DNA of 64,000 bases, taken from IMG/VR virus record IMGVR_UViG_3300024341_000001; one strand, written 5' to 3'. The stretch is from a virus (taxonomy: Duplodnaviria; Heunggongvirae; Uroviricota; Caudoviricetes). The position numbers were made by a program, and so were the translations under genes. The notes under the pieces were generated by a model that was not told the DNA's origin, made no database searches, and saw only the letters and a program-made list of their open reading frames with translations. Below are positions 176 through 40,372 of this stretch, in pieces. Every line of letters starts with the position of its first letter. Position 1 is the first letter of the stretch.

Positions 176-184
176 TCTTATACC
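176..184 (+). repeat. TCTTATACC motif copy 1
   Basis: part of the 14-mer TCTTATACCAAAAT, repeated 69 nt later. Confidence 0.6.
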
Positions 185-244
185 AAAATCCCCACCCTCC
201 TACCACCGCATCTCCGATGCCGCTCCCGTTCTTGGAAACATGAT

Positions 245-253
245 TCTTATACC
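245..253 (+). repeat. TCTTATACC motif copy 2
   Basis: TCTTATACCAAAAT; just before the terminator. Confidence 0.6.
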
Positions 254-261
254 AAAATAGT

Positions 262-294
262 AAAAAAATGTGACGGATATTCGTCACATTTTAC
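262..294. terminator. bidirectional rho-independent terminator
   Basis: A-run, perfect stem GTGACG/CGTCAC with loop, then T-run, immediately after the stop of the 298..1515 gene. Confidence 0.7.
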
Positions 295-297
295 TTA

Positions 298-1515
298 TTA
301 ACCTAGCCGTCGGGTTCTATGTGCCTTAAGTCCCGCAACGGCCATTTTCTTGGTGCCGGTCAACTTAGCAATAGCGTTTGAAGACATAGTAGGATTTTTT
401 TCTACTAAGACCTTCGCCGCCTGCATTTTGTCGCCTGCTTTTAAATGAACTCGTATTGAATCCATAAGTATTCTCCTTTCCGCCTCTTTTTCTTTTCCCA
501 GATCAATACGGGCTTGTATTGTGGGAACTACGTTTCGATCTATAAACCAATCTAGCGCTTCACATATGGTGGACACTAATGCTGCTGTTCCATGATCTAC
601 AATATCTTTTAAGGCTTGCTCTAATGTCTGTATGGTTGCTGGAATATGCATATTTATCATTATTGGAGCAAATGAAAACATATCAATGAACATGGGGCTA
701 GGATTACTATTGTACTTAAATGCAGAGTGATCCATCACACGACGTGGCTGAACTTTGGCTGCCCACAAGAATTTTGCAAGCGCCTCATAGGGAATGTTAT
801 GATCAGCAGCTTTGAGGAATTCTTTTAATAAATCTTGACAATATCTACGTGTCATGTTTACGGCATCCTCTTCTATACATTCCCATGTATCCTCGGAGAT
901 TACATTATTTGTACTTGTTGCTGATATCCGTTCGTGAAATGAATTATCGAATTCCTCTTTATTCATACCGGTCACAAAATCGACTGCATTACAAGGGTAA
1001 TTCTCGGAAAACATGCTTAATACAAAAACACTGACAAGCGCCTCTTTGTTTAAATCTTTATAGATATTTTTCATAAAAGCGTAGGTTTCGGCAGAAAATC
1101 CGTTTTCACGTGCTCCCAAAAAATTAGTGATTACAATACCATCTTTGGCTAAGATATTAGGGGACGTGCCACCAATTTGTGTAAATTGTCCTTGAAAATC
1201 AAGCCACATTACATCAAATACCTGAGTGGTGATTGTTGCGAAATCAGCATAGGTAGTCCTTGGTAATAGATTAAATTTTAACTGTTGCGCAATTTTTTGT
1301 ACTTGAGGATACAGCGAAGGATTACATTCTAAACCATATAAGTTTTCCCTCTTGAACCCTAATGGATCAAAAATTTCAAATACATCATACGCGGTGACCC
1401 CTGGAAGAAATAATACTTTTTTATTCTTAGCATCACCAACAAGGTTGTGCTGAATAAATTTACGAATCTTTTTTCTTGATCGTCGTTTTACGATCATATC
1501 ATAATCTTTTTCCAT
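298..1515 (-). CDS. hypothetical protein (N-terminal region faintly Rossmann/methyltransferase-like)
   Basis: 405-aa ORF ending at a rho-independent terminator; no diagnostic motif recognised. Confidence 0.3.
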   Translation of the reverse strand: MEKDYDMIVKRRSRKKIRKFIQHNLVGDAKNKKVLFLPGVTAYDVFEIFDPLGFKRENLYGLECNPSLYPQVQKIAQQLKFNLLPRTTYADFATITTQVFDVMWLDFQGQFTQIGGTSPNILAKDGIVITNFLGARENGFSAETYAFMKNIYKDLNKEALVSVFVLSMFSENYPCNAVDFVTGMNKEEFDNSFHERISATSTNNVISEDTWECIEEDAVNMTRRYCQDLLKEFLKAADHNIPYEALAKFLWAAKVQPRRVMDHSAFKYNSNPSPMFIDMFSFAPIMINMHIPATIQTLEQALKDIVDHGTAALVSTICEALDWFIDRNVVPTIQARIDLGKEKEAERRILMDSIRVHLKAGDKMQAAKVLVEKNPTMSSNAIAKLTGTKKMAVAGLKAHRTRRLG

Positions 1516-1540
1516 GACTGGTTCTCCTTTCGTTATTTAA

Positions 1541-1549
1541 TCTTATACC
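1541..1549 (+). repeat. TCTTATACC motif copy 3
   Basis: on the minus strand GGTATAAGA sits 13 nt upstream of GGAGA-N7-ATG of gene 298..1515. Confidence 0.6.
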
Positions 1550-1552
1550 CGT

Positions 1553-1590
1553 AAAAAAAATGCACGAGTAACCAGTCAGAAACTCGTGCA
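1553..1590 (-). terminator. rho-independent terminator (minus strand)
   Basis: stem TGCACGAGT...ACTCGTGCA followed on the minus strand by an 8-nt U-run; lies between genes 1648..2607 and 298..1515. Confidence 0.7.
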
Positions 1591-1637
1591 TTAGGAAGGC
1601 TTAGATACACGAAAGGGAGGGTATCGTGTACTTATAT

Positions 1638-1646
1638 TCTTATACC
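1638..1646 (+). repeat. TCTTATACC motif copy 4
   Basis: 1 nt from the stop codon of 1648..2607. Confidence 0.6.
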
Positions 1647-1647
1647 G

Positions 1648-2607
1648 TTACTTAGTGTCTTTCAAATCCAATATAAACATCGGCTCTTTTCCAGCTCCAC
1701 CTACATATGTTTGTGGAGGTTGCCCATTCCACCTTTCGATCCATTTTAGTGCTACTATTTTTGGATTGTTAGTAACAGATTGCCCCTCGATTTGCAATGC
1801 ACGCGCCCGCCCCTCAGCTCCGACTATTGCAATCGATTTATCTATATCGGCTTGTTTCTTGAGTTCGATTTTTTGCTGTGTTACAACCTCAAGACGTAGC
1901 TTTTCTTGTTCTTCAAGTTTTTTCTTGTTTATCATGGCTTCATATGCTTCATTATAAAATACCTCTCTAAGAGATATGCCATCGCAAAGAATATGATATT
2001 CACGGAAACTAGCTTGCATTTTTTTCCAAGCCGCTGCCTGTAAATCTTTACGACGTTCACCATACAGTTCAACAGGGGTAAAATCATTGGCCGACATTTG
2101 TAGAGCCGCAACTGCCATTGGTCGGATAATGTTTTCTTCGATCCACTCAAACCGATCTTTACCATCTTGTTCACTTACATTGGCATAAATCCATGGTGCA
2201 TAATTTGGATCTATACGCCAAGGTACGGTAAGATTAAATCCCATCTTGATACCATCTTTGGTAGGAGCCCATATAGCGTCATACTCACTTTTTGCGCCCT
2301 CATTATGCTTATTTGAAAATGTGTATACCTGTACAGTTTTATCCATAAGAAAAAGATCATACCATATTGGTACAAAGCGCCAGCCGGACTGAACTGCTAC
2401 CGTATCAATACCACTAGGTTTAAATAACACACCAACTTTTTGTCCGTTAACAATCTTGAAATTGATGATAGCAATGAAAACTATAAATCCAATGGCGAGT
2501 ATGGTACGAGGAGCGCGTAATCGAAACTCCGGATTCTTTTTGTTTACAATACCAATTATACCATAAGCCATACCAATACATCCCAATATTCCGATAAATA
2601 CAAGCAT
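1648..2607 (-). CDS. SPFH/band-7 (HflK/C-prohibitin-like) membrane protein
   Basis: N-terminal TM helices; central beta-rich domain; C-terminal coiled coil with ADIDKSIAIVGAEGRARALQIEGQ resembling HflK/C. Confidence 0.45.
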   Translation of the reverse strand: MLVFIGILGCIGMAYGIIGIVNKKNPEFRLRAPRTILAIGFIVFIAIINFKIVNGQKVGVLFKPSGIDTVAVQSGWRFVPIWYDLFLMDKTVQVYTFSNKHNEGAKSEYDAIWAPTKDGIKMGFNLTVPWRIDPNYAPWIYANVSEQDGKDRFEWIEENIIRPMAVAALQMSANDFTPVELYGERRKDLQAAAWKKMQASFREYHILCDGISLREVFYNEAYEAMINKKKLEEQEKLRLEVVTQQKIELKKQADIDKSIAIVGAEGRARALQIEGQSVTNNPKIVALKWIERWNGQPPQTYVGGAGKEPMFILDLKDTK

Positions 2608-4552: not shown

Positions 4553-4569
4553 AAATTACTCCTTTAAAA

Positions 4570-4607
4570 TGGAGGATCCGCTAGGACGATCCTCCAGATT
4601 TTGTTCT
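4570..4607. terminator. stem-loop GGAGGATC/GATCCTCC with flanking U-runs on both strands
   Basis: perfect 8-bp stem; plus strand followed by AGATTTTGTTCTT; minus strand followed by AUUUUAAAGGAG (the SD of gene 4364..4552). Confidence 0.5.
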
Positions 4608-5020
4608 TGGCTGAATCATCTAGTATTCAGAAGTATGTATTTCGATGTACACACTGTACCTTTTCGCCGGTACCCCTCGGCTATCCTAGTAATAGTCCAG
4701 TTCGACCCAACCCTATGTAGATGCATAGACCCAATGTAGGTTGGATGAATTTTTTGTTCGCGCATACCCTTCAGTCATACATTGAATAGGCTGAAAAGAG
4801 TACCTGCTTTTATCATCACCCAAGCAACGACTTTTGCATAGTCATCACCAGTTTGGAGATAATACGTTGTTATCTTCCAACGGTCCCTTTTAGTATATGC
4901 TTCGCGTTAGCATACTACTATTTAGAACCACACTCACGTCCGCAGATTAGAGTAACATGATTTAATCATTAATATGGTTGGTATGCGCCTTCCATATAAT
5001 GATAGCTTTGGTACTTATTA

Positions 5021-5029
5021 TCTTATACC
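5021..5029 (+). repeat. TCTTATACC motif copy 5
   Basis: overlaps the stop codon of 5023..5571; followed (minus direction) by a 470-nt noncoding stretch. Confidence 0.6.
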
Positions 5030-5571
5030 TGAATTAAACATTGCTGTATCTTTTGTTTTGTAATGATTCCGTTTTGCGTAAGTTCGTTAAGTTTTTCAAG
5101 ATCTATATGATCTTCAGCTTTTACCTTAACCTGAATCCACAGTGGTTCATTTGGACGATAATCAAGAAAAGTTTTTGGTTTACACCGTAGTATCTCTGTA
5201 AACATTTGAACTATTCGTTCTCCGGCTTGCTTACATCTTACAAATCCAGCCAAATCATAACCAACACCTCTGGGCGCAAAATATTCCCCCTCGGGAGGTG
5301 GGTTGTCTGGCACTACCAAATTATGTGCTGGAACATGCGCACGTGGATGTGGTGATACCTCTGGAAATACGGCAGGATCACCATGACCTATGGTAGATAC
5401 TGATAGATGATCCGAAACAATATAAAAAGCTTCCTTGCATTCAAGGCATTGTACGCAAGTTGTCCCATTCCCAGAAAGATAACCAGTAGCGGAAGAACAC
5501 CCGCATTGCGGACACCCATATGCATTGAAGTCGGCAAAGTGAATCGCTATATTCATATTATACTCCGACAA
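5023..5571 (-). CDS. hypothetical Zn-ribbon protein with dUTPase-like fragment
   Basis: N-terminal CPQCGC...CVQCLEC; C-terminal GVGYDLAGF...GERIVQMF resembles dUTPase motifs I and IV, but the middle motifs are absent. Confidence 0.3.
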   Translation of the reverse strand: MSEYNMNIAIHFADFNAYGCPQCGCSSATGYLSGNGTTCVQCLECKEAFYIVSDHLSVSTIGHGDPAVFPEVSPHPRAHVPAHNLVVPDNPPPEGEYFAPRGVGYDLAGFVRCKQAGERIVQMFTEILRCKPKTFLDYRPNEPLWIQVKVKAEDHIDLEKLNELTQNGIITKQKIQQCLIQV

Positions 5572-6100
5572 TAAATTTTGCGTAAGAGTTTAATTTAACT
5601 TTAGGCAAATTGGTTAATGGTTTTGGTGTTTTATTAAATACATAATATCTATAGTAAGCTTTTTTTGTTGCCTTACAAAGCTTACCCTTGAAGTGCCTAG
5701 ATATAGTAGCACCGGGTCCTTCATAGTATGAACACATGGCTAACTGCATTGCTTTGCTCGAATCATATCCTAGATAAATATAAAATCCACGCAAATGCAA
5801 TAAGTAGCGTATTCCTATAGTTACGTTGAATAATTTATCTTTCAACATTTCGATAGTTATTGAATATTGACAGAAATCGCTGGCAGTTGATGGCAACACC
5901 TGCATTAATCCTACCGCGCCTTTATGGCTGATAACATGTGGTCGATAAGACGACTCACGGAATATTTGTCGTTTGATCATACTATAGGACACCTGTCTAA
6001 TTTCGCACAGTTCCTGTATAGACGTAATTTTTGGTAATGTGCTGGAATCTATCACGTTATATAAAAGAATCGTGCTAATGAGTAATATTGCGTATTTCAT
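5558..6100 (-). CDS. lytic transglycosylase (SLT domain), secreted/anchored; endolysin candidate
   Basis: ESSYRPHVISHKGAVGLMQVLPSTA matches the SLT catalytic-Glu motif (ES...GA.GLMQ..P.TA); N-terminal signal/TM segment. Confidence 0.7.
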   Translation of the reverse strand: MKYAILLISTILLYNVIDSSTLPKITSIQELCEIRQVSYSMIKRQIFRESSYRPHVISHKGAVGLMQVLPSTASDFCQYSITIEMLKDKLFNVTIGIRYLLHLRGFYIYLGYDSSKAMQLAMCSYYEGPGATISRHFKGKLCKATKKAYYRYYVFNKTPKPLTNLPKVKLNSYAKFIVGV

Positions 6101-6119
6101 AATATACTCCTTTCTATGT

Positions 6120-6128
6120 TCTTATACC
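6120..6128 (+). repeat. TCTTATACC motif copy 6
   Basis: on the minus strand GGTATAAGA-N9-GGAG-N8-ATG of the SLT gene. Confidence 0.6.
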
Positions 6129-6239
6129 ACGGTGAATGGCTATGGGACCACAAGCAGATTTTTTCGTCATTTTATCATATTTTTGACAAAGTCGCGTGAC
6201 AAAATTAAATGGCCGTTTTGGTGTATTTTAAGCAGTTGA

Positions 6240-6820
6240 TTGAAGGCCTTTAAACTTACGTTTTGAAATTAGCGATTTTGGAACAAAATCGCCGTTTAGG
6301 GACCGGTCGCGTTTTTCGCGTTTTTGAGGGATTAAGTTCTTATAAATTAAGCACTTAGCACACCACGCTAAAGTAAAATCTTAAATAAAAATGAGGGTTT
6401 TAGCGTAATATCGATCCTCATTTTTAGGGGTCGTTTTTTAATATTTGAAAATCAATTTTATTTCAACTTTAGAATATTATTACTTTTACTAAAAATAAAT
6501 ATAAATAGGTCTAATTCTGAGTTCACAATTTACTTTAAGCTGATTTCATTGATCGGAAATGCGATTTTTCATGGGACCGGTCGAAGTTGATTTTGAAAAA
6601 AATTTTTCTGGCCCCTGTTTATGCGGGTCCGCTGCTGCACCGGTCATTTTTTGTTGCAAAATCATTGGGGTTTTTGACCAAAAAAGTGTATCAAAATGAG
6701 AATTTTTTGCGAAGGAAAATTTTTTCGGATTTTTTGGGTAAAAAGTTTTTTTGAAAAGTAAAAAATGTACTTTTCAATATTTGCCTGGAGGGTCAGTCCA
6801 GGCAAATATTTAGGTGGCGA
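6240..6820. promoter_or_regulatory. AT-rich repeat-laden noncoding region (candidate replication origin or regulatory hub)
   Basis: 580 nt without a credible ORF; phased T5-7/A5-7 tracts; GGGACCGGTCG twice (about 6298 and 6573) plus near copy GCACCGGTCA (about 6647); several perfect hairpins (GCGATTTTG/CAAAATCGC; ATGAGG/CCTCAT; TTTGCCTGGA/TCCAGGCAAA). Confidence 0.4.
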
Positions 6821-7221: not shown

Positions 7222-8337
7222 TTAATTCCTTATTGTGAAAAATATAATAGTTATTATTAGTACCATTAACAATAATGAAAGAATAAGTATTTGTATGATT
7301 GGTTCTATTTCTACAGTCAAATAGTCAAATTCCTTAAATTGCCGCCGCTCAAATTTTTGGGCCACTATATCTTTAAGATTAGTCACCGTAGTCAATGGAT
7401 CGAATTTACTTTGAGCTAATATCATAGCTTGTATATCTTCTTTCATATCATTCCGTTTAGTCCATGAGAAGACTTTAGCCCACTGTATTTTGGCCGTATC
7501 GTTAATACTTACACATACAACTACTTCGTTCTTATTACCACCTTTCCAATAGCTTTCTTGATGAACAGCGTATCCATCTGGCCGGTCGTGGAATATTAAT
7601 AACCACATACGTACTTGTTTTACTGATCCGATTAAGCCATTGTAATTTGTCAGCAGCTGATCTGCTTGAGTATAATCCATTATATTCCCTTCTTGCAATA
7701 TCGAAGGACAGGTGTTATTTATCACTTTCGGATAATTAAACAATTTTATATGTGCTGTATCAGGCTGATAGAATTTAAATACACTTGGCGCATGTCGTGT
7801 TTTATTAGTGTATAGTTGTGTACTAATATATGGAATAATAGTATGATCATCGTTATTCCAATGTGTAGTATATTTATCACCATCCTGTGTATAATAATTT
7901 CGGCCTAGGTCTATGTATTGTTTATTTTTCCATATCTTGGTTAAGTAGTTATACATACCCAAATCTACGTCATAATTTTTACCGAGATTTGTAGTTATTT
8001 TATAACTAGGTCCATGACTATCCACATGTGAACAATCATAGTAATATGTGGTATATGTAATATTACCGTCTGAATCAGTCCCCGAAGGAATGTCGCGTGA
8101 ACACATATCATGATGCCATTCATTCCATGGTTCATAGTAATCACATGCTAACGCATATTCGCCGATATATTCAGTTTCTAAAGCTGTTCCATATGTAGCT
8201 ATTAATTGACTACCGAATAAAATTATAAACCCAATATTCAGTAGTATTACATATTTCTGCCAAGACATTTTGTCTTTAAAAAACACAAAACAAACTGCTT
8301 CAGCAATTGCAATAATAACGATTCCGATAAGAATCAT
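7222..8337 (-). CDS. hypothetical membrane protein
   Basis: N- and C-terminal TM helices flanking a Tyr/Asn/Asp-rich extracytoplasmic domain. Confidence 0.35.
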   Translation of the reverse strand: MILIGIVIIAIAEAVCFVFFKDKMSWQKYVILLNIGFIILFGSQLIATYGTALETEYIGEYALACDYYEPWNEWHHDMCSRDIPSGTDSDGNITYTTYYYDCSHVDSHGPSYKITTNLGKNYDVDLGMYNYLTKIWKNKQYIDLGRNYYTQDGDKYTTHWNNDDHTIIPYISTQLYTNKTRHAPSVFKFYQPDTAHIKLFNYPKVINNTCPSILQEGNIMDYTQADQLLTNYNGLIGSVKQVRMWLLIFHDRPDGYAVHQESYWKGGNKNEVVVCVSINDTAKIQWAKVFSWTKRNDMKEDIQAMILAQSKFDPLTTVTNLKDIVAQKFERRQFKEFDYLTVEIEPIIQILILSLLLMVLIITIIFFTIRN

Positions 8338-8380: not shown

Positions 8381-8389
8381 TCTTATACC
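8381..8389 (+). repeat. TCTTATACC motif copy 7
   Basis: abuts the -35 of the 8424 promoter; 44 nt upstream of the minus gene start 8337. Confidence 0.6.
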
Positions 8390-8418
8390 TTGCATTTTTG
8401 AATATACTTTCGTATATT
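8390..8418 (+). promoter_or_regulatory. sigma70-type promoter TTGCAT-N17-TATATT, leaderless start
   Basis: -10 hexamer ends 5 nt before ATG 8424; no SD. Confidence 0.55.
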
Positions 8419-8423: not shown

Positions 8424-9695
8424 ATGGAAACTTTTTATGCTAAGGTATTAGAACAGCTGGACGATTATCGATTCAAGGTCAAGCGTATGAATGCAGTTGA
8501 AAGGAGCGAAGCGTCATTAGCTGAAGTAGCAACAGTACTGTCTATGATGCCAACAGGACGAGGTGCTGGATTTCGTGCTGGTGCTAGTAAATGCGATAAT
8601 TTATATGCTGTATGTTTTAAAGATTCTGCATATATGGTTTTTATCCTGGGGTTTGTTCCAGGTAGTTTTGCGCGAGAAATTACTAGATCTGAACCTGGTG
8701 GATTTGTATTAGCTAGTGCAGATAATACACATGTTAAAGCATTCGGTGACGGATCATTAAGTTTATATACATCTGAATATTCACAATTAGTATTAGAGCC
8801 ACGAGCTGAATCGTTATTTGGACAATTCAAAAATGTAACCTTTAAATATTGGACAGGCAGTAATAGTATCAGACCTGGTATATACCGATTCTATTATGCC
8901 AAGGATCAAGATCTTACCGCATTACCTACACACAAAACAGATACTAAGCCAGATAATTTTATAATCGATATTGGTAAATCAGATGAAGCTAAAGGCACTG
9001 TTAACTTTTGGATAAAAGAAAATTATGATTCAACTGGATCTTCCATATATTCATTAACTGGTACAATAGGCGACAAAAATATTATTGCTTTGTCGTTTGC
9101 TGAGACAGATTTAAAAATTACATCAGATATTACATGGACAACCGATGGTGCATTATTATATTCTGTAAAAAACACTGACACAAAAAATAATGTTCAGTGG
9201 AAGTTTGATGAGAAGTCATTGATAAGCACACTGACCTTCAACGATGCTAAAGCTAAAGTTGATCTAATACTGGATTCATCAGTGGACAATCAATTTAGTA
9301 TTATTGGTAGTGGCGAAGGTGCAAGTAAGAAATATTCATTAGCAATGGGCACGGGTTCAAGTGCATTAATACTACGTCTAGCCGATGATAAAGTTAAATT
9401 AGATATTGCCAGTGATGGTGGTATTATATTAGATAATGGTAAATGTGTAATTACTGTTACCGCTAGCGGTGATGTTACGATTAAAGCGGACGGTACAATT
9501 AAGATTGGTGGATCCGGTAATGAACAGCGATTAGTGACAGAAAGTTGGGTCAAGGACGAGTACGCTAAGCATCAACATCAAGCACAAGGCCCGGCATCAC
9601 CTACAAGTACACCTTTTCCATTAGATATGAGTATATATTCACCAGGCTCAGACAGCAGTTCAAATCAATTTACAAATACAACGAGGGCAGAATAA
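8424..9695 (+). CDS. hypothetical beta-rich protein (possible virion/fibre-like)
   Basis: 423 aa; Ser/Thr/Gly-rich beta-strand repeats; leaderless. Confidence 0.35.
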   Translation: METFYAKVLEQLDDYRFKVKRMNAVERSEASLAEVATVLSMMPTGRGAGFRAGASKCDNLYAVCFKDSAYMVFILGFVPGSFAREITRSEPGGFVLASADNTHVKAFGDGSLSLYTSEYSQLVLEPRAESLFGQFKNVTFKYWTGSNSIRPGIYRFYYAKDQDLTALPTHKTDTKPDNFIIDIGKSDEAKGTVNFWIKENYDSTGSSIYSLTGTIGDKNIIALSFAETDLKITSDITWTTDGALLYSVKNTDTKNNVQWKFDEKSLISTLTFNDAKAKVDLILDSSVDNQFSIIGSGEGASKKYSLAMGTGSSALILRLADDKVKLDIASDGGIILDNGKCVITVTASGDVTIKADGTIKIGGSGNEQRLVTESWVKDEYAKHQHQAQGPASPTSTPFPLDMSIYSPGSDSSSNQFTNTTRAE

Positions 9696-9946: not shown

Positions 9947-9985
9947 TACTATTGACATACTCAGATTATTTGAGTAATATTACGT

Positions 9986-15299: not shown

Positions 15300-15905
15300 T
15301 TATGACTCTTTATTTTCCTTTGATGCGGCTGGCTCTTTACTTGAAAGAGCTTTTACCTGATCGGCGATTGATTTATTCTCGTCCTCATCCTCACTCTCAT
15401 CCTCATCATTTTCGATCTGCAGGACCTTTGAGGGGTCAAGAATTTCGATAGCATCGATTTCGTTGAAAGTAAGGAGCAAGTTATATGGCTTGTCGTCGGA
15501 GTCAGTGATAATGCAATTCTCAACGTCACCTTCGGCAACAGCTTCAAAATGAATTATATGATCGTCAGCATATATCTTAGTGACTTTTGCTAACACCACT
15601 GCGTCTGACTCATCATATCCCCCATGCCAGCGTTTACTTATTACTCCCTCATCGAGCAATCGAAGCATCCCTTCGTGTTGCACGTGTAACCGCACGATTT
15701 TGTCGGGCAGTGTATCGCACATGACCTTGAGGACATCATCGGGATTACCTTTTGGATATTGCGGCTTGCTCCATTTAGCACTGTAATTTACAAAAGCACC
15801 AAGTTTGTGAATGCCGCCATCTTTAATCCAGGATAATGGCGCAGCTGCGATTGTGATCGCTTTTAGGGCAAGCATAATGCCACTATTTAATAAAGCGTGT
15901 AACAT
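15300..15905 (-). CDS. hypothetical protein with acidic C-terminal tail
   Basis: 201 aa; DEDESEDEDE tail. Confidence 0.35.
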   Translation of the reverse strand: MLHALLNSGIMLALKAITIAAAPLSWIKDGGIHKLGAFVNYSAKWSKPQYPKGNPDDVLKVMCDTLPDKIVRLHVQHEGMLRLLDEGVISKRWHGGYDESDAVVLAKVTKIYADDHIIHFEAVAEGDVENCIITDSDDKPYNLLLTFNEIDAIEILDPSKVLQIENDEDESEDEDENKSIADQVKALSSKEPAASKENKES

Positions 15906-16007: not shown

Positions 16008-16016
16008 TCTTATACC
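16008..16016 (+). repeat. TCTTATACC motif copy 8
   Basis: divergent gap, 5 nt before the -35 of the 16056 promoter. Confidence 0.6.
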
Positions 16017-16021
16017 ACTAT

Positions 16022-16050
16022 TTGACTTTGTTTAAATAATTTCGTATATT
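16022..16050 (+). promoter_or_regulatory. sigma70-type promoter TTGACT-N17-TATATT, leaderless start
   Basis: -10 ends 5 nt before ATG 16056. Confidence 0.55.
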
Positions 16051-24502: not shown

Positions 24503-24531
24503 TTGACATTTATATTAAATATGCGTAAATT
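24503..24531 (+). promoter_or_regulatory. sigma70-type promoter TTGACA-N17-TAAATT, leaderless start
   Basis: -10 ends 5 nt before ATG 24537; first promoter of the long rightward operon. Confidence 0.5.
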
Positions 24532-28814: not shown

Positions 28815-31475
28815 ATGTTACAATTTAAATTATCAGACTTCGTACAAAAGTTTTTTTATCTTAATAATGAACCATTCAGTTTGGATGACTATCCACACAT
28901 GAAATTGATTTATGATATTGATCCAATGAAGTTGTGTTTACATACGAGTCGCCAAGTCGCTAAATCTACCACGCTGTCAAATTTCATGTTAGCTAAATGT
29001 ATTTTAATGCCATATGTTAGCAACAGGCATAAGGGTGGATTTAAAATTTTGGCAGTATCGCCCACTGTTGAACAGGTACGCGTATTTTCATATGATCGTG
29101 TTGATACTGTTATAGAACAAAGCCCGATATTTAAAAAATATTTTGTAAGTAGTTCCACAATTCAAAACGTATTCCAAAAACGTTTCCTTAATGGTAGTGT
29201 TATTTATTTACGTTATGGATCTGCAACTGCCGATCGTATTCGTGGTATATCTGCTGACATGAATTGTTTTGATGCAAATACAGAAATTCTCACCGAGAAT
29301 GGTTGGAAATTATTTAAAAATCTTCTCGACGATGAAAGAGTTGCTACAGTAAATGACAAAACGGGAATGGTAGAATATCATTTACCCGATATGTATATCC
29401 AAAAAGCATATCAAGGTAAACTAGTTAAATTTACGCAGCGCAGTTTTAATCTTTGCGTGACCCCTGATCATATAATGAACGTATCACAGGAATTAAGTAC
29501 TGGTTACTATCAGAATCCAAAAGTTAAAGGCTGGTTTAATATAAAAGCACAACAGTTAGCAGGAAAAAATTTTAAATTAGGTGTTAGGGGAAATTGGGAG
29601 TCAGCCAATCCCGTCGATTTTTAATTACCTGAACAAATTGTTGCAAATAAGTTAGACGGATCTCCGTATAAATATCCCAAAAAGATACCCAGTTTTTCAG
29701 CGCCATTGAAAATTTTCATGCAATTTATGGGGTGGTTTTTAGCTGAGGGGTATATATCTCCTGCGGGACAAATACGTATAATACAAAACGAAGGTGCATA
29801 CTCAGACGAAATTCGACATTGCTTAACAGCAATGGGAGTTAAATGGGGCGTTGTTGCCAGACATAATAAAAATGCTGTATGTAATACATTTTACTTTGCA
29901 AACGCTGCTTTATCTAGATACTTATATGCTTTGGGCACCTCGCATGATAAATATATACCTAGGGAATTATTAAATTACATACAATATCTACCGGACCTTT
30001 TAAATGCCTTATATAAAGGAGATGCCATGCATGTACAAGACTTCGGTCATAACGGGGGACAGTTAGTTACAGCATCAATCGAGTTAGCAAATACAGTACA
30101 GGAGGCATGGCTTCGCTTGGGGTATCTTTGTAGTATTAGAAGTCGAAAACCAGCATATAACGGAACAATTTTATATAACGTCGGACGCTATAAAAAAGAC
30201 AGCATAATATTTTGGAACGGATATACAAATAATTCGCGCATCGAATATATAGATTACATTGGACCAGTTTATTGTGTCGGCGTAAAGAATCACTTGATTT
30301 TTGTAAGAGATGCGATAGAAAAGTTACCTATAGTGTGTCATCAGTGTCTGGACGAAATCCAAGATATTCCCGATGATAACATCGATGTCATTGAACAAAC
30401 AATGGCGCGATCATTTTACAAACATTCGATATATGCAGGAACTCCAAAACATATTATCGGGCCATTAGCAAATCGATGGCGTCAGACTACTAGAAATGAA
30501 TGGATTGCAAAATGCCAGCATTGTGAGAAACAAAACTTTCTTGACGAAGAAAACATTCAACCATGGGGGCTTGCTTGTAGATATTGCAAAATGTCTCTAG
30601 ACGCGCGCAACGGACAATGGGTGCGTACAAATCCCGAATCAGACAAATCTATTCATGATGGATCGTACTTGTTTGAGGGGTTTAGAGTTAGTGTTTTAAT
30701 GTTTGCCCACGCGCCTTGGGTAAATTGGCAGACGGATGTTTATATACCATTTCAAACAAAATCCAAAGGCGTATTTTTTAACGAGTATCTAGGGCTACCA
30801 TATGATGCCGGTGTCGCTCCAGTAACCGAAGAGGAAATTAAAGCATGTTGCACTGGTGGGCCAATGATTCAGGAACCAGATCGTCGCACCAGAGATTATC
30901 CCACGTTTATGGGAATGGACTGGGGGCCAATTAACAGCGAAATGTCAAAAACGTTGATGACAATTTCGCAACGTCGCGGTGATGTTACAGAAATAATCTA
31001 CCTACATAAGTATGAAGGTAAAGAAGCTGATTATGCTTATCTACATGAGCATATACCGGCAGAATATTACAGATGGGGCTGTGCATTAATAGGAGCTGAT
31101 GCCGGTTTTGGTGAGGCAGTGAATGCTGAAGTACGAAATCGTATAAATGATAAAACCAGATTAATAGCATTTCAACATGTGCCGAATCAAAAACAACGTG
31201 GTCAGTTCAATGGGCATATTCAGGCATATACCTTATCTCGCAACACCGTGATGACTGATTTATTTACTAAGATAAAACAGCGGAAGATCGTTTTCCCGCA
31301 ATGGAGTGACTTTCAATATTATGCGAAAGATATACTGGCTATTGCGATTGAATATAACGAAGAAAAGAACACGTACAGATATATTAAGTCTGCCGCCGAC
31401 GACACCTTCCATAGCATTTTGTATGGAGACCTGGCTGCAGAATTATATTACCGTGCCTCTGCATTTAATAATTAA
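28815..31475 (+). CDS. terL: terminase large subunit (ATPase-nuclease), interrupted by an intein
   Basis: Walker A TSRQVAKSTT. The spliced junction ...ISADMN|CLDEIQD restores the Walker B hhhhDE motif. The C-extein carries a nuclease-type domain. N-extein = 28815..29264, C-extein = 30345..31475. There is an in-frame TAA at 29622..29624 inside the intein. Confidence 0.85.
29265..30344 (+). mobile_element. intein with LAGLIDADG homing-endonuclease domain (C-terminal Gln variant)
   Basis: Block A CFDANTEILTENGW (Cys1). Block B LCVTPDHIMNV (TxxH). LAGLIDADG motifs FMGWFLAEGYI and LLNALYKGDAM. Block G VYCVGVKNHLIFV, ending CHQ followed by the +1 Cys. 1080 nt = 360 codons. Confidence 0.8.
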
Positions 31476-31486: not shown

Positions 31487-31864
31487 ATGAAGACACCTAT
31501 TAAACGTTTTTCAAGGCTTACCGATACTTCCGGCAACGCGGTAAATGAAAGATTAACTAAACTTTATCTAAACACAAAAAGGACCGAAGCGCATCAACCA
31601 TTAGCTACTCCTAAAACAGTGCTAGAGTCAGCTAAACAAATAGCTAACGTATTTCACAACTTAAACCCCGAAGAACGGGAAGTAGCAAAAAAAGTGGTAT
31701 TTTCATACGCAGGTGTCGAAAAAATAGGTAGTAATAATCGTACTACTCCTGGCTGTATTAATGCTATTGGTATGAAACGCACTGCTCCCGGGTTTAAAGG
31801 TATAAATGCAAGCAAGATCGCTGCATTCAAAACAGAATTACTTAAGGTCTTGACTGAGAGTTAA
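31487..31864 (+). CDS. hypothetical protein
   Basis: 125 aa. Confidence 0.35.
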   Translation: MKTPIKRFSRLTDTSGNAVNERLTKLYLNTKRTEAHQPLATPKTVLESAKQIANVFHNLNPEEREVAKKVVFSYAGVEKIGSNNRTTPGCINAIGMKRTAPGFKGINASKIAAFKTELLKVLTES

Positions 31865-31900
31865 GATTTTTGTATAATCTACTATAGGAGAATCAATTAC

Positions 31901-33425: not shown

Positions 33426-35192
33426 ATGATAAAATTTACAAGTTTTGATTTACATAACGATTCCGGAACTTTTATTCAATTCTGGTCAGACTCGTTAACG
33501 AAGACTGCTGAATATTCACAAGAACTCCGTGATCGTGTAAAAGGGCTCGAAAAGAAAGCAAGCAAGACGTATGTGCTTGTTAACGCAATGGGATCTGGCG
33601 AATTCTGGGGTCCAAATCGCAATGGCGATTATTTCCCCGACTTGTCGTTATGTCGTGATCACAAGACATTTGAAAAACTTGGGCACGCATACAAGCATCA
33701 TGTGAACAAAGATCCCTTGAAAAGTTTTGGTCAGGTAAAGATCGCGGTATTCAATCCCGATATGCATCGTGTCGAACTAGTGCTTGAGCTTGACAATGAA
33801 CGGGCAAAAGAAATTCTTGATCGTATAGAAAAAGGCGAATATCCAGCAGTGTCTATGGGGGTAAAAGTTCCCTTTGACACATGCAGTATATGTAAGAAAA
33901 AAAGCAAGCGCGTGTCTGACTATTGTGATCATTTAAAAAATCAAATGGGCATTACATTACCAGACGGTCAAAAAATTTACGCTATAAATGATACTGATTT
34001 GAAATTTTTTGATATTAGTTTTGTACGAATTCCAGCCGATCGTACCGCTAGTGTACTTAGTAAAATTGCATCTGTACAAGCTGAAATTCCATCAGCAGTA
34101 ATAGCGCAACAGTTCTTCAAAGAATCAGGTGTAAAAGAATCAGCTATAAATAAATTGGTTGATGGTACAATAGCGGCTGTTGATGCGGATCCGAAGCGTT
34201 TAATATACGCATCACAACAACCGATGCCTAAAGAAGAATTAAAAGAAGTAGTAGCAAAATATGCATCTAATGAAATTCTTTCGACTATGTTGGGTATGCG
34301 TATAGTTCCGACTCCGACAGAATTTCAATACATTATTCTATCAAAGGGCGGGCAAGAAAAATTAGCCGAGTCGTGTTACGACTCTAACATATCATTAATG
34401 GATATGGATGAAGATCCTGAATTTCCAAATGATATATCACTTCAAAACTTTAATGACGAACTAGCCCAAAAAATTGCTCATTGGGCACCAGGTATGTCAT
34501 TAACAGTTCCTCATGTTATAAAACGTGTTTTGATAAAACGGGCCGAACTCACTACAGAGTCATCGCCCGTAGCAATTACTATTAATCCAGGAGTTCATGC
34601 CCCAACCTTGAAACGTCCGGCGGAATCTACTTTTGCTCCTATAAAAAATCCGTTGATGCCGTTATTGGGTTTGGGCGCATTGTATATTGGTTACAATGCC
34701 TTGATGGATAAGATTGGGCTGACTGGAAAAACTCTTGCGGAAACGGGAAACTTTGAAAAATTTCTCCTATCAAAACCATGGCTTATTCCTATCGTGTTGG
34801 GTGCGGCAGCAGCCGGCACTGTTGGAATCCAAGATCTTATGTTTAATAAGACCGCGGCTATCATACGTCCACATTTTTTGAAACGTTTGCTTATGGCTGT
34901 GCCAGCATCGTATATCTATGCTGGATCACAAGAAGCAAAACTTCAGAAAGGTGAGCCGATAACTGAATTTGGAGACTTCGTACGACGTCATCCATTTCTA
35001 GCTGGCGCGGGCGGCACATTTACCCTAGGCCAGCTTCACAAGATAATGAAAATGCCCCCTATCGGGGTCATGGCAAAAACATCCGAATACTCTTTGGATG
35101 CAATAGATCGTCTTATCTTGGGATTGAAGCCAGACAAACTAGAAAAATTTTACAACGACGTTATAGATTACATCCCTATTGACATTAAGTAA
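33426..35192 (+). CDS. large head-morphogenesis protein (portal or protease/scaffold-fusion candidate)
   Basis: 588 aa; lies between terminase and scaffold-like genes; CSIC...CDH Zn knuckle; no diagnostic motif. Confidence 0.3.
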   Translation: MIKFTSFDLHNDSGTFIQFWSDSLTKTAEYSQELRDRVKGLEKKASKTYVLVNAMGSGEFWGPNRNGDYFPDLSLCRDHKTFEKLGHAYKHHVNKDPLKSFGQVKIAVFNPDMHRVELVLELDNERAKEILDRIEKGEYPAVSMGVKVPFDTCSICKKKSKRVSDYCDHLKNQMGITLPDGQKIYAINDTDLKFFDISFVRIPADRTASVLSKIASVQAEIPSAVIAQQFFKESGVKESAINKLVDGTIAAVDADPKRLIYASQQPMPKEELKEVVAKYASNEILSTMLGMRIVPTPTEFQYIILSKGGQEKLAESCYDSNISLMDMDEDPEFPNDISLQNFNDELAQKIAHWAPGMSLTVPHVIKRVLIKRAELTTESSPVAITINPGVHAPTLKRPAESTFAPIKNPLMPLLGLGALYIGYNALMDKIGLTGKTLAETGNFEKFLLSKPWLIPIVLGAAAAGTVGIQDLMFNKTAAIIRPHFLKRLLMAVPASYIYAGSQEAKLQKGEPITEFGDFVRRHPFLAGAGGTFTLGQLHKIMKMPPIGVMAKTSEYSLDAIDRLILGLKPDKLEKFYNDVIDYIPIDIK

Positions 35193-35239
35193 ATTTTTCG
35201 TTAATATTTAACACAATTTAATTAGGAGAACTTTCTACT

Positions 35240-36957: not shown

Positions 36958-36959
36958 CT

Positions 36960-38330: not shown

Positions 38331-38356
38331 CATTTGGTAAAAGCGGTACATTATTT

Positions 38357-38388
38357 TAAAGGCCAACAGATTTGTTGGCCTTTTTTAT
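38357..38388 (+). terminator. rho-independent terminator
   Basis: GGCCAACA-gatt-TGTTGGCC followed by TTTTTTA. Confidence 0.75.
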
Positions 38389-38391
38389 TAG

Positions 38392-38420
38392 TTGACATTT
38401 ATATAATTTTTTAGTATATT
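38392..38420 (+). promoter_or_regulatory. consensus sigma70-type promoter TTGACA-N17-TATATT
   Basis: perfect -35, 17-nt spacer, then AGGAG SD and ATG 38434. Confidence 0.65.
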
Positions 38421-38433
38421 AATAGGAGAACAA

Positions 38434-38814
38434 ATGCAAGATATTAAAAATATCGATGATTTTACTATTGGTGACACGTATTCTTTAACCCGCACGTTGA
38501 GTACAGTGCCTGGCAGCCATATTGTAACAGATGCTTTCTGGACCGTTAAATCTGATGTTGATCTTCCTGATGTAGATGCTGTATTTTCAATTCATATAAC
38601 AAGGTATACGACAGCCTCGGGTATAGGTGAGGTTACAAATAACGCTGACGGTTCAGCACAATTACAATTTATTGCAGAGCCCACTGTGTCGCTATTAATG
38701 GATGGAGCCAGTGTATATTATTATGATATACATATCAACTTAGACTCCGGCGAAAAGTATATGGTGGAGAATGGCAAGTTATTTACCAATAGGATTGTTC
38801 GTCGTACACATTAA
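38434..38814 (+). CDS. small, probably highly expressed virion protein
   Basis: 126 aa, beta-rich; own strong promoter plus SD. Confidence 0.35.
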   Translation: MQDIKNIDDFTIGDTYSLTRTLSTVPGSHIVTDAFWTVKSDVDLPDVDAVFSIHITRYTTASGIGEVTNNADGSAQLQFIAEPTVSLLMDGASVYYYDIHINLDSGEKYMVENGKLFTNRIVRRTH

Positions 38815-38822
38815 GAGGCACT

Positions 38823-39299
38823 ATGGCATATACAACTTACGAAGAAGCTGCAAAAGCATTAAGACGCTATCTGAACGATCAGCCACAACTCAACGAATTA
38901 GACGAAGATTTTGAATCCACTGATGATGAGTTAGCTGATTTTATAAAACAATCTTTAAACACCATCAACATGGAATTTTCACCAATTACTTATTGGACTA
39001 TCGCAGATGTGGTAGTTGAACCAGGTGAGAATGGCTATATGCCTTGGAGTACAGTTAGATTAGGAGCTATATTAGAATTACTGACCGCAAAGGGAATCAG
39101 CTCGGCTAGAAATATGCTGGCTTTTTCTGATGCTGGTGGAGTACAAATAAGCCATCACGATAAATGGGGACGTTATATTAATTATTATAATGTAATGAGA
39201 CCAAAATTTGAGAAAGCAGTGGAGACTGCAAAAATTCGCTTTAATGTTAATCAAGCTTATGGCGGTTTTAGTTCTCCATTTTCTTTTGACGTATATTAA
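38823..39299 (+). CDS. hypothetical virion protein
   Basis: 158 aa. Confidence 0.3.
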   Translation: MAYTTYEEAAKALRRYLNDQPQLNELDEDFESTDDELADFIKQSLNTINMEFSPITYWTIADVVVEPGENGYMPWSTVRLGAILELLTAKGISSARNMLAFSDAGGVQISHHDKWGRYINYYNVMRPKFEKAVETAKIRFNVNQAYGGFSSPFSFDVY

Positions 39300-40081
39300 T
39301 GATAAAGATTCTTGATACCGCATTGGCGCAAGTGTCGCCGTCGTTTATAACTGTTAGTTGGACATTGGAACCAACAACTGAAAGTTTCTTAGATTATCAT
39401 ATTGATATTTATAGAAGCGAATTACCTTCCCTGCAAGCAGCGGATTATGATTTAGTTGCGTCAGGTATTTCTCCGTATTATCATGGATCGTATAATGATA
39501 TAACCATTTCTGGTCTAACTACAAAGTACGCCACATACAATTATAAAATAGCCGTAATAAATAATACTACTGAAGAGACTGTTTATTCTTTGCCAAAGGG
39601 TCTTTCAGTAACATCCGACAACGATGCTAGGTATATTATTAAACATCGTGAATTGGTGCTTAATCGATTAAGTGGTGCAGATTTTATATTATTAAAACGC
39701 AAGACTTTTGGAACTTTTTGCACCGCATGTTATGATGAGACTTTGCAGCGTCAATCTGACTCTAAATGCACAGTTTGCTTTGATACCAAGTATACTGGAG
39801 GTTATTATCTTCCACACAGGTTCAGAGCTCAAATGAATAATAATCCTCCCAGACATGTGTTAACAACATATGGTGACTGGCAGGATAGTGATGCTATAAT
39901 AACGATGAGTAACACCCCTGTTTTAAGTCCCACCGATATAATCGTCGATAGATTAGGTGTCAGATGGCGTGTAGTAACTATAAAAACAGTTAATAAAGCA
40001 ATGTTTTTGATATCACAGCAGGCACAAGTTAGACAGGTAGAAATTGACAATATCGTATATTCTTTTCCTATTTCTTGGTAA
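39299..40081 (+). CDS. hypothetical virion protein with Cys knuckles
   Basis: 260 aa; CTACYDE...CTVCFD. Confidence 0.3.
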   Translation: MIKILDTALAQVSPSFITVSWTLEPTTESFLDYHIDIYRSELPSLQAADYDLVASGISPYYHGSYNDITISGLTTKYATYNYKIAVINNTTEETVYSLPKGLSVTSDNDARYIIKHRELVLNRLSGADFILLKRKTFGTFCTACYDETLQRQSDSKCTVCFDTKYTGGYYLPHRFRAQMNNNPPRHVLTTYGDWQDSDAIITMSNTPVLSPTDIIVDRLGVRWRVVTIKTVNKAMFLISQQAQVRQVEIDNIVYSFPISW

Positions 40082-40084
40082 AGT

Positions 40085-40117
40085 AAAAAAAGTTTTAGGT
40101 CCTTTCGGACCCAAAAC
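40085..40117. terminator. hairpin terminator (clearest on minus strand)
   Basis: GTTTTAGGTCC-tttc-GGACCCAAAAC; the minus strand is followed by a U7 run. Confidence 0.55.
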
Positions 40118-40311
40118 TAATTTGACCCAAAGGCTACATTTAGATTTTCATCATAAAATACAGGACGTACTTGTCCACCATCTGTTCTTGTTAGTCTTGG
40201 ATCGCGCAAGTTCGCAAGTGTTATTGTATCTTCACTAGGTAAAACCTTATACGACTGTAGTGCTTTTATATGAAAATTAGAAAACTTTTTCTTTCTACGA
40301 CGTTTAGCCAT
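40117..40311 (-). CDS. small basic protein
   Basis: MAKRRRKKK N-terminus; GGAGA SD. Confidence 0.3.
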   Translation of the reverse strand: MAKRRRKKKFSNFHIKALQSYKVLPSEDTITLANLRDPRLTRTDGGQVRPVFYDENLNVAFGSN

Positions 40312-40363
40312 AGTTCTCCTTTTTTAGAGTTTTTGTTTGAAGAAAGCTTCTAAATTATAACTA

Positions 40364-40372
40364 TCTTATACC
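40364..40372 (+). repeat. TCTTATACC motif copy 13
   Basis: 9 nt before ATG 40382; 53 nt upstream of the minus gene start 40311. Confidence 0.6.

Follow-up and report, generated by a model that had tools for sequence, protein, structure and literature searches.

The DNA analysed here, a 64,000-nt stretch that we call the window, forms with its flanks ~84 kb of sequence from the ~215-kb genome of an uncultured phage. Its rightward genes, including the structural ones, have canonical promoters of the form TTGACA-N17-TAWAWT (class I), and its leftward units are accompanied by a different recurrent element, the 9-mer TCTTATACC. This is the commonest 9-mer of the window, with 13 exact copies compared with 0.49 expected by chance and a maximum of 3 in 100 shuffles. 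All 13 lie on the plus strand and read GGTATAAGA on the minus strand, a recount that agrees with the number, strand, and coordinates given in a preliminary description of this DNA. Although intergenic DNA makes up only 6.3% of the window, it holds 12 of the 13 copies whole. The remaining copy, at 5021, shares 7 nt with the end of the ORF at 5023-5556 (-), and its TAA is the stop codon of that ORF, so that the earlier statement that every copy is intergenic was a slight overstatement. Allowing one mismatch adds 17 sites, which are scattered over both strands and equal the chance expectation of 17.0; thus, the 9-mer is essentially invariant.

At the left end of the window, the box at 176-184 (predicted transcription start site, TSS, ~170; all boxes are given on the minus strand) is followed by a ~340-nt leader and then by the next leftward gene, in the left flank (L001:11694). 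The box at 245-253 (predicted TSS ~239) stands 8 nt after the terminator (292-265) of gene 298-1515 (-), with a G-rich segment of 55 nt between it and box 176. The gene 298-1515 itself is preceded by the box at 1541-1549 (predicted TSS ~1535), located 3 nt after a terminator T-run, with AGGAG 12 nt downstream (GGAG 13 nt) and then the ATG. Similarly, the box at 6120-6128 (predicted TSS ~6114) has GGAG 9 nt and the ATG 19 nt downstream, the gene being the SLT-domain gene 5558-6100 (-), and the box at 24488-24496, with GGAG 17 nt downstream, heads the operon 24461->21707. On recomputation, therefore, the described distance of 9-17 nt to GGAG holds for copies 1541, 6120, and 24488. The boxes at 8381-8389 and 20379-20387 head the operon 8337->6821 and a ten-gene leftward operon (20323->16660), respectively, and the one at 40364-40372 heads a single leftward gene, 40117-40311 (-), inside the rightward structural block. 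All four leftward units at divergent junctions (8337, 20323, 24461, and 40311) have a box 27-56 nt upstream of the start codon, measured from motif start to gene start, and the box is also found ahead of units 1515, 6100, 15905, and 22562. For unit 15905, it lies at 16008-16016, ~100 nt upstream of gene 15300-15905 (-), and for unit 22562 it is the internal box 22625-22633, between genes 22639-23121 (-) and 21927-22562 (-). The distance to the start codon at 8381, 20379, 40364, and 22625, measured here as 43-62 nt, bears out the earlier account.

Counting beyond the window added two copies in the flanks, each co-oriented with its downstream gene: L001:12076 lies directly after a terminator and precedes a gene, and L003:6382 follows a stop codon and precedes a tRNA-Val. 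In the ~84 kb of this one genome seen so far, there are no cases of a rightward gene preceded by a copy on the other strand. All copies fall on one strand because the genes that the box would drive point left in this part of the genome; strand exclusivity, for which a DNA-level site had been among the earlier alternatives, instead follows the orientation of this gene class, and reverse-complement copies elsewhere would therefore not refute a promoter reading.

Class I promoters, for their part, are found only on the plus strand ahead of rightward genes, and the genes for the terminase, a protease-like protein, the major head protein, and the sheath all point rightward, lack the box, and have class I promoters. 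Three junctions have the two elements arranged back to back, their predicted start sites being 49-55 bp apart. Box 8381 abuts the -35 (8390-8395) of its divergent partner, TTGCAT-N17-TATATT at 8390-8418 (+), where the ATG of 8424-9695 comes 5 nt after the -10, so that the mRNA is predicted to be leaderless. The same 5-nt spacing between -10 and ATG is seen at TTGACT-N17-TATATT (16022-16050, +; ATG 16056), also predicted to give a leaderless mRNA, whose -35 at 16022-16027 is divergent to box 16008, and at TTGACA-N17-TAAATT (24503-24531, +; ATG 24537), whose -35 at 24503-24508 is divergent to box 24488 and with which the rightward ~35-kb block begins. Other plus-strand class I sites are located at 9952-9980, 31850-31878, 35179-35207, 38392-38420, and 55122-55150.

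Some boxes, namely copies 1638, 5021, and 22625, do lie directly 3′ of a stop codon, as had been noticed, but several of the copies in this position seem to start small RNAs, a tRNA, or the gene that follows, and do not look like the termination signals that had been considered. For instance, the box at 1638-1646, which 1 nt separates from the stop codon of 1648-2607 (-), heads a candidate 83-nt small RNA at 1550-1632 (-). The predicted fold of this RNA (MFE -26.2 kcal/mol, z -7.5) shows a hairpin at the 5′ end with CCCUCCC in its loop, an unpaired CCUUCC, and a strong intrinsic terminator. The order on the minus strand is box 1638, the 83-nt RNA with its terminator, and box 1541, and the same box-sRNA-terminator-box layout is repeated in contigs L091 and L113. 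The box at 5021-5029 (predicted TSS ~5015) has a structured, ORF-free region of 470 nt on its 3′ side. The orphan box at 16544-16552 has no ORF downstream and is followed by short hairpins and then by a bidirectional terminator (16414-16441); it may drive a small RNA, with a weak downstream fold (z -1.8), and for boxes 16544 and 245 the fold analysis gave no convincing RNA product.

The anatomy of the box was defined from a pooled set of 87 unique sites from 18 loci. In minus-strand register it reads G-14 G-13, T-12 A-11 T A A G-7, A-6, and usually A-5. The TA at -12/-11 is invariant (87/87), as is G-14, and position -7 is G in all 87 sites, that is, never T. A T at -15 is present in 45 of the 87 pooled sites and 7 of the 13 window sites, and the base directly 3′ of the box is A in 80% of the pool. 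Only 9-10 positions are informative in the alignment; the 9-mer core of the extended consensus proposed earlier stands, while its T(A/G)T flank is only weakly conserved. Upstream of the box, the information content is below 0.3 bit at every position of the 87 sites, which agrees with the earlier view that a conserved -35 is missing; this holds for the window copies and the pooled sites alike, and no second conserved promoter element is found within 40 nt on either side. Downstream, T is found 5 nt past the box in 60/87 sites (69%) and a purine 6 nt past it in 78/87 (90%), so that the predicted +1 falls exactly 7 nt past the hexamer TATAAG. The boxes are followed by a Shine-Dalgarno sequence (SD) and ATG, a tRNA, or a terminator-bounded small RNA, and often preceded by an intrinsic terminator: an SD with an ORF start occurs within 150 nt downstream in 67% of pooled sites versus 33% of random positions, clustered at 15-55 nt, and a run of at least five Ts occurs within 45 nt upstream in 54% versus 16%.

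The preliminary description had proposed to look for the motif in related phages. Its conservation turned out to be wider: GGTATAAGA recurs, in a matching context, in over 12 metagenomic phage contigs that are unrelated to this phage or related to it only distantly. The densest are L091 (7 copies in 13.8 kb), L142 (12 in 13 kb), and L113 (11 in 10.8 kb), and the box is also present in L155, L112, L149, L145, L139, L143, L124, L157, and L128. The proteins of these contigs have little or no similarity to those of this phage, and in other phage contigs, too, the orientation of the box matches the genes it precedes. Among relatives, L162, whose sigma factor is 64% identical, keeps the box at a syntenic HNH-[box]-tRNA site; in the two closest syntenic relatives, L160 and L161, the 20 kb surrounding the sigma gene contain no copy. 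The box also lies 3.3-5 kb upstream of a sigma gene in the contigs L168, L187, L195, L197, L213, and L198.

On these grounds, we consider it very probable, from sequence, that GGTATAAGA forms the core of a class of promoters that work without a -35 (class II). This would be a real class and, with its unusual invariant G-7, a variant of the T4-late-like or extended -10-like promoters that phages are known to use with a single box. The earlier leading hypothesis of a phage promoter element without a -35 thus gains in silico support from the position of the box relative to SD/ATG, tRNA, and terminators, and further support from the purine at the predicted +1, the lack of a second conserved element, and the recurrence in other phages. 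In the proposed mechanism, an RNA polymerase holoenzyme would bind GGTATAAGA in the geometry of a sigma70-family -10, and transcription would start on the minus strand ~6 nt past the last base of the box, at motif start minus 6, with T at -1 and a purine at +1. The products would be the leftward early/accessory operons, the tRNA operon of the right flank, and several short terminator-bounded RNAs, and the rightward genes, head and tail included, would run from class I promoters.

Three rivals, namely RNA processing, an operator, and a nick or packaging site, fit poorly; a fourth keeps the promoter but changes the enzyme. In the latter case, the box could be a promoter for a non-sigma70 enzyme, be it a single-subunit, YonO-like, or multisubunit phage RNA polymerase, perhaps delivered with the virion and encoded in the remaining part of the genome. 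We find this improbable, even if the invariance without degenerate copies is more like phage-polymerase than sigma70 promoters, G-7 is non-canonical, the early-type genes require a reader at time zero, and ~130 kb of genome lies beyond the sequence seen. T7-type single-subunit polymerase promoters have ~17-23 conserved bp, spanning -17 to +6, whereas the conserved stretch here is 9-10 bp; TA at -12/-11 and a +1 purine 7 nt past the hexamer are the exact sigma70-family geometry; and the presence of a sigma70-family gene in the phage implies the use of the host core polymerase. Moreover, no phage RNA polymerase gene was found in the 84 kb seen, where no ORF has the DxDGD catalytic motif.

It is distinctly less probable that the box is an operator or activator site for a phage or host regulator beside the promoters. 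Its sequence is invariant and asymmetric, and three copies directly adjoin the -35 of a divergent canonical promoter, which a protein bound there could regulate; nevertheless, most copies have no divergent partner, the leftward genes show no alternative promoter element within 40 nt on either side, and a non-palindromic 9-bp sequence with -10-like composition and a fixed purine distance fits a core element. A signal in the RNA, GGUAUAAGA, at which leftward transcripts are processed or terminated, would account for copies 1638, 5021, 22625, and L003:6382 coming right after stop codons. It is very improbable, given that the terminator T-run just upstream in 54% of pooled sites means that transcripts would mostly end before the box, that no leftward transcript whatever arrives from upstream at the divergent junctions (copies 8381, 20379, 24488, and 40364), and that there is neither a conserved RNA structure around the box nor an Rfam match. 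The least probable explanation, to which we give hardly any weight, is a strand-specific DNA site, such as a T5-like nick, packaging, or replication signal. All copies in the visible region are indeed on one strand, as are T5-type nick sites, but gene orientation fully accounts for this bias, in other phage contigs the box also follows the genes it precedes, and its tight coupling to gene starts, SD, tRNA, terminators, and a +1 purine would be unexpected for a nick or packaging site.

Among known systems, the putative class II promoters share most with two. T4-type late promoters carry a TATAAATA box, which gp55 recognizes together with gp33 and the sliding clamp. TATAAGAA and TATAAATA are identical at 6/8 positions, the differences being invariant in class II, and both classes have a single, nearly invariant A/T-rich -10 box without a -35, kept across very divergent phages, with the start (predicted for class II) a few nucleotides downstream. 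The likeness to the T4 late box that had been pointed out is therefore sound for the single box and missing -35, but not for the genes: class II, unlike T4 late promoters, has an obligatory 5′ GG and a G at the sixth position, (GG)TATAAGA(A), and would drive early/middle-type non-structural genes, tRNA, and sRNAs, while the structural genes have canonical -35/-10 promoters. In the 84 kb seen, where the sole sigma factor is RpoD-like, a scan of ~40 proteins identified no homologues of gp55, gp33, or gp45. Extended -10 sigma70/SigA promoters, TGnTATAAT, are used without a -35 by several phages, for example, for middle/late genes of Thermus phages, and they share with class II the G-14, the TA at -12/-11, the missing -35, and a purine 7 nt after the hexamer, where class II transcripts are predicted to start. 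The T-15 is found in only about half of class II sites (45/87), and class II differs in its invariant G-13 and G-7, its A at -6/-5, and the lack of degeneracy among copies. A distant relative, L010, has at the equivalent places the true extended -10 version, TTGTATAATAT, instead of GGTATAAGA.

The resemblance to other systems is more partial. Bacteroidetes-type housekeeping promoters have TTTG at -33 and TAnnTTTG at -7; class II shares their TA at -12/-11 but neither fits TAnnTTTG nor has TTTG at -33. Within the window, TAnnTTTG does not lie upstream of genes, and, also unlike that type, the phage genes have strong Shine-Dalgarno sequences. As in the early host-takeover modules of SPO1 and T4, there are short units of small genes of unknown function, alternating terminators and promoters, and tandem promoters. 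SPO1 and T4 early promoters have canonical host-type -35/-10 elements, whereas here the canonical type is on the other strand, ahead of structural genes.

The RpoD-like sigma factor is encoded at 62107-62907 (-) and comprises regions 1.2-4 without region 1.1. Among cellular proteins it is closest to the short primary sigmas of the FCB group (Ignavibacteria/Bacteroidota-type), which also lack region 1.1. The reader of the box may have the FCB-type residues L440, N455, and G458 (E. coli numbering) where TG-reading residues normally stand. Judging from its sequence, the phage sigma is a candidate for reading either class I or class II promoters. Recognition of the -10 by sigma70/SigA-type factors normally needs a T at -7, so that with G-7 in its place the standard housekeeping holoenzyme would be an awkward reader. 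Within the promoter models, we nonetheless name the host holoenzyme, tentatively, as the reader of the box; the phage sigma seems somewhat less likely, and so, to the same degree, does another phage factor or polymerase from the remaining ~130 kb.

If class II is indeed a promoter class, GGTATAAGA would give a large group of uncultured jumbo phages, which lack any cultured relative, a transcription signal that is precise and can be searched for, and a single 9-mer could delimit transcription units, small RNAs, and tRNA operons in their genomes and be used for recruiting related contigs from metagenomes. It would also raise the mechanistic question of which sigma tolerates, and seemingly requires, G-7 and GG at -14/-13. 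A bolder reading, possible but doubtful, is that the box represents a new sigma-promoter specificity, with an obligatory G-7 and no -35, common to a large clade of uncultured, sigma-encoding jumbo phages of FCB-group (Ignavibacteria/Bacteroidota-like) hosts and part of a strand-segregated two-promoter programme. If so, class II would drive pre-replicative genes, tRNAs, and sRNAs, and class I, several of whose promoters would be leaderless, the virion genes, with the phage RpoD-like sigma reading one class and the host holoenzyme the other. This strand-segregated arrangement, in which divergent promoters overlap, is a candidate for a compact temporal switch: two polymerases may compete at the back-to-back pairs, which, under this bolder reading, would be competitive switches. 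The same divergent pairing of class I and class II elements is found in L091.

The window contains 13 copies of the 9-mer TCTTATACC (starting at 176, 245, 1541, 1638, 5021, 6120, 8381, 16008, 16544, 20379, 22625, 24488, and 40364), exactly where the preliminary description had placed them and on the plus strand only, against 0.49 copies (maximum 3) in shuffled sequences, and this 9-mer is the commonest of the window. Allowing one mismatch added 17 sites, on both strands and in coding DNA too, when 17.0 were expected by chance; thus, TCTTATACC is essentially an invariant 9-mer, with no degenerate family behind it. The claim that all copies are intergenic holds for 12 of the 13, in a window whose intergenic fraction is 6.3% according to an ORF-based gene map, but not for copy 5021, which overlaps the ORF at 5023-5556(-) in its last two codons and its stop, the TAA in the copy being that stop. 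The distances reported earlier from the box to GGAG/ATG and to stop codons were correct when re-measured. Identical contigs on the left (L001) and right (L003) supplied ~20 kb of additional flanking sequence with two more copies, both co-oriented with the downstream genes: L001:12076 lies immediately 3′ of a terminator and 45 nt ahead of a gene, and L003:6382 lies 1 nt past an HNH gene and ~100 nt ahead of tRNA-Val.

A second promoter class helps to understand this strand exclusivity. Intergenic matches to TTGACA-N17-TAWAWT (class I) were found in the window on the plus strand only, ahead of rightward genes, at 8390, 9952, 16022, 24503, 31850, 35179, 38392, and 55122, some of them within the head and tail gene blocks. 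At four of these sites (8390-8418, 9952-9980, 16022-16050, and 24503-24531) an ATG follows exactly 5 nt past the -10 hexamer, so that leaderless mRNAs are predicted for the respective ORFs at 8424, 9986, 16056, and 24537, and this fixed distance speaks for the four sites being real promoters. Given that gene direction and promoter class coincide, the strand exclusivity of the motif is a consequence of the genes that it serves, which are leftward in the case of the box (class II). The two classes stand back to back at 8381, 16008, and 24488, where the GG of the box is separated by 0, 5, and 6 nt, respectively, from the class I -35 element upstream of it. The predicted start sites of such pairs (8381-8395, 16008-16027, and 24488-24508, together with a divergent pair at 2100-2151 of the box-rich contig L091; gaps of 0-9 nt) are ~49-55 bp apart, and polymerases may compete at these junctions.

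In the orientation of the leftward genes, the motif reads GGTATAAGA. The earlier statement that it lacks a conserved -35 was borne out, as there is no other strong conservation from -45 to +30 nt around the 13 copies, only a weak A/T preference just 5′ of the box and a T and then a purine 4-6 nt 3′ of it. All four leftward units at divergent junctions (gene starts 8337, 20323, 24461, and 40311 in the ORF map) have a box 27-56 nt ahead of the start codon, measured from motif start to gene start, and other leftward units with a box ahead of the start begin at 1515, 6100, 15905, and 22562. The T-runs of intrinsic terminators end 8 nt before box 245 and 3 nt before box 1541. In the latter case, the order downstream of box 1638 is an 83-nt segment with a 5′ hairpin and a strong terminator, box 1541, an SD, and an ATG. 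The segment folds at -26.2 kcal/mol (z = -7.5) and, together with box 1638, would constitute a complete small transcription unit without an ORF. The candidate 83-nt sRNA (1550-1632, minus strand) presents CCCUCCC in a hairpin loop and CCUUCC in a single strand. Its 5′ ACACGATACCCT is similar to ACCACGATATCCT in ~45-nt box-driven RNAs of three other contigs (L113, L112, and L139), and a complementary GGAGGGUGGGG is found at 185-239(-), in the segment that separates box 245 from box 176. Downstream of box 5021, a 470-nt ORF-free stretch, 4553-5007(-), is strongly structured (MFE z = -4.0) and may be a large non-coding RNA; it has no Rfam match, and no Rfam family reached its gathering threshold at the boxes or close to them. 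Another ORF-free stretch, the 720 nt at 6101-6820 upstream of box 6120, contains short repeated words of the GGGACCGGTCG type and a perfect 14-bp hairpin at 6776-6810.

The box is also found in other phages. Metagenomic collections were scanned for two boxes 60-88 nt apart, with a stricter version that also demanded a T-run before the second box, and these scans gave many chance matches plus phage-like contigs with strong one-strand enrichment. For instance, 7 copies were counted in the 13.8 kb of L091/L122, where 0.12 would be expected, while L142 has 12, L113 11, L155 8, L112 7, and L149 6; further enriched contigs are L145, L139, L143, L124, L157, and L128. The proteins of these box-rich contigs have little or no similarity to those of the window phage (L091 gave a single 32-residue tblastx match, E 7e-4), and what they share is the context: a terminator hairpin and T-run, ~10-15 A/T-rich nt, GGTATAAGA, and 15-55 nt to an SD and ATG, or, alternatively, GGTATAAGA with a short RNA, its terminator, and another box downstream. 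In a pooled set of 87 non-redundant sites from 18 loci, every position upstream of the box carries less than 0.5 bit, with no -35 signal. The base after the box is A in 80% of the sites, the position 5 nt beyond it is T in 69%, and the position 6 nt beyond is a purine in 90%. With TATAAG as the hexamer at -12 to -7, this conserved purine would be exactly +1. A run of at least five T within 45 nt upstream accompanies 54% of the sites compared with 16% of random positions, and an SD-preceded ORF start lies within 150 nt in 67% compared with 33%.

Three of the contigs also show a box followed by an SD with a 6-8-codon mini-ORF, a terminator, and a second box (L142 9193-9293, reverse strand; L157 877-974; L143 3507-3622), possibly leader-peptide/attenuator units. 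Double-motif matches in MORN-repeat genes, where TGGTATAAGAATGG encodes WYKNG, and in tandem repeats (including L118/L146/L156) were discarded as false positives. The 9-mer recurs within MORN-type repeat genes (W-Y-K-N-G) in L014 and L086, and the equal 81-nt spacing of box pairs in the ~216-kb IMG/VR contigs L032, L064, L065, L067, and L071 suggests that such repeats may explain these pairs as well; MORN-type repeats are a systematic false positive for motif-pair scans.

Closer relatives can be recognized by the RpoD-like sigma factor of the window phage (62107-62907, minus strand), whose homologues, 54-79% identical, are found on 90-200-kb contigs with the conserved order OmpA-ABC-HNH-tRNAs-650 aa-ThiF-SLT-sigma-DNA polymerase; the SLT-sigma-DNA polymerase arrangement is kept in all of them. 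In L162 (sigma 64% identical), the box comes right after HNH, the same position as in the window phage, with tRNA-Ser 22 nt past the predicted start, and the 20 kb of L160 and of L161 contain no copy. Eighty IMG/VR loci with more distant members of the sigma family gave a weak overall signal, 29 copies against 20.3 expected, with a 24:5 strand bias that may come partly from the purine bias of coding strands, and only individual loci with promoter-like contexts were taken as evidence. Such copies occupy the syntenic place in L168, L187, L195, L197, L213, and L198, where they precede sigma by 3.3-5 kb. A copy in L165 thought to stand in front of the SLT-sigma operon was rejected, as it is located inside an ORF. 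Three loci with distant homologues of the 7222-8337 protein (L010-L012) have no box and have motifs of their own instead. The distant relative L010, whose neighbour protein shares 45% identity with the 7222-8337 product, carries TTGTATAATAT in the corresponding places, repeated upstream at 2839, 5103, and 10645, and L012 repeats CTGGAAA-N13-GGTGATATA at 620, 5336, and 9019. The seven clustered copies at L011:17412-17660 share the core AACCATTAAGATACAA, extended to CAACCATTAAGATACAA in five, and look like iterons rather than promoters.

We consider it highly probable, from position and conservation, that the box is a promoter. An RNA-processing or termination signal is unlikely, given that terminators precede the box and that the copies at divergent junctions have no leftward transcript upstream of them. 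A nick, packaging, or replication site would leave unaccounted for the coupling to SD/ATG, tRNAs, and terminators and the conserved +1 purine. The binding site of a regulator is still conceivable, but there is no other conserved element that could be the real promoter.

As a promoter, the box has no exact counterpart among the known types with which it was compared. The resemblance to the T4 late promoter TATAAATA pointed out previously is sound with regard to the single-box logic and to the 6/8 identity with TATAAGAA of the window box; however, the differences are invariant, and the box does not drive structural genes. Extended -10 promoters also share the single-box logic, but the box has an invariant G in place of T-7. 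Since the box lacks a defining feature of each family, it belongs to neither, nor does it belong to the TTTG/TAnnTTTG type of Bacteroidetes. It appears to be a variant of single-box phage promoters for which our literature searches, with GGTATAAGA or TATAAGA, found no earlier description, only primers and unrelated matches.

What reads the box is less clear. The phage sigma has 266 aa, with regions 1.2, 2, 3.0, and 4 and without region 1.1, and its region 4.2 retains the TRERIRQ residues, which read TTGACA in sigma70. The equivalents of E. coli T440, R441, H455, and E458, residues whose functional roles are described in the sigma70 literature, are L, F, N, and G. The idea that T440L, H455N, and E458G adapt this phage sigma specifically to the GG box was abandoned because these residues are also present in cellular FCB-group primary sigmas; in the alignment, L440, N455, G458, and F386 are common to the nearest cellular relatives. 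The latter are FCB-group primary sigmas of 284-290 aa, 43-47% identical (Bacteroidia, Melioribacteraceae of the Ignavibacteria, Marinilabiliales, and Gemmatimonadetes), which makes an FCB-group host more likely than a firmicute. A Firmicutes host, suggested by the best PDB hits of the sigma, was dropped after the large-database search and alignment had led to these relatives. Ignavibacteria-like chromosomes have a matching GC content (35%) and use SD sequences, and the binning of two box-bearing phage-like contigs, L099 and L097, in Ignavibacteria and Bacteroidota MAGs is weak evidence of host. Two Ignavibacteria-like chromosomal loci, whose 40 kb are too little to judge host usage, contain no copy.

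In the window phage, class II serves accessory genes, tRNAs, an RNA-repair-type (Swiss Army Knife) HAD-domain gene of the window, and PARP-like and NAD-synthase genes of the flank, while class I serves virion genes. This gene content suggests that class II is pre-replicative and class I late; on this view, class II would more likely be read by something already available at time zero, and class I by the phage sigma. The location of sigma downstream of a box does not show that the box is independent of the phage sigma, as several relatives have a terminator between sigma and the class II operon upstream, so that no order can be deduced for the cascade. In the 84 kb examined of the ~215-kb genome, a search for the RNA polymerase catalytic motif found none. 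The host holoenzyme is a slightly likelier reader than the other candidates, though at somewhat less than even odds; the phage sigma and another phage factor come close behind, on a par with each other.

The window (37% GC) has no nucleotide match among cultured phages, no cultured relative was found, and no close relative turned up in IMG/VR when it was scanned for the protein patterns of two window proteins. The longest contigs with the same sequence reach 215,168 bp, and the window has genes for a large terminase, a protease-like head protein, a major head protein, a tail sheath, an ATP-dependent ligase, and a split family-A DNA polymerase; its source is an uncultured jumbo myophage. The polymerase gene (61090-62106 / 60037-60837) is split by a group I intron at 60883-61117(-) (Rfam RF00028, 69.4 bits, E 1e-17), which the whole-window gathering-threshold scan had missed. 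The large terminase also seems to be split, into plus-strand ORFs at 28815-29624 and 29706-31475 with 81 nt between them, the N-terminal PHROG match falling in the first and the C-terminal one in the second, which could reflect an intron, a frameshift, or two real genes. The window itself has no tRNA according to ARAGORN; the right flank has tRNA-Met, tRNA-Val, and tRNA-Ser genes at L003:5653-7086. In the left flank, WGR+PARP-like, NAD synthase, RNA ligase, and ClpP genes (L001:13576-21218) form one long leftward operon, which stands behind the box at L001:12076.
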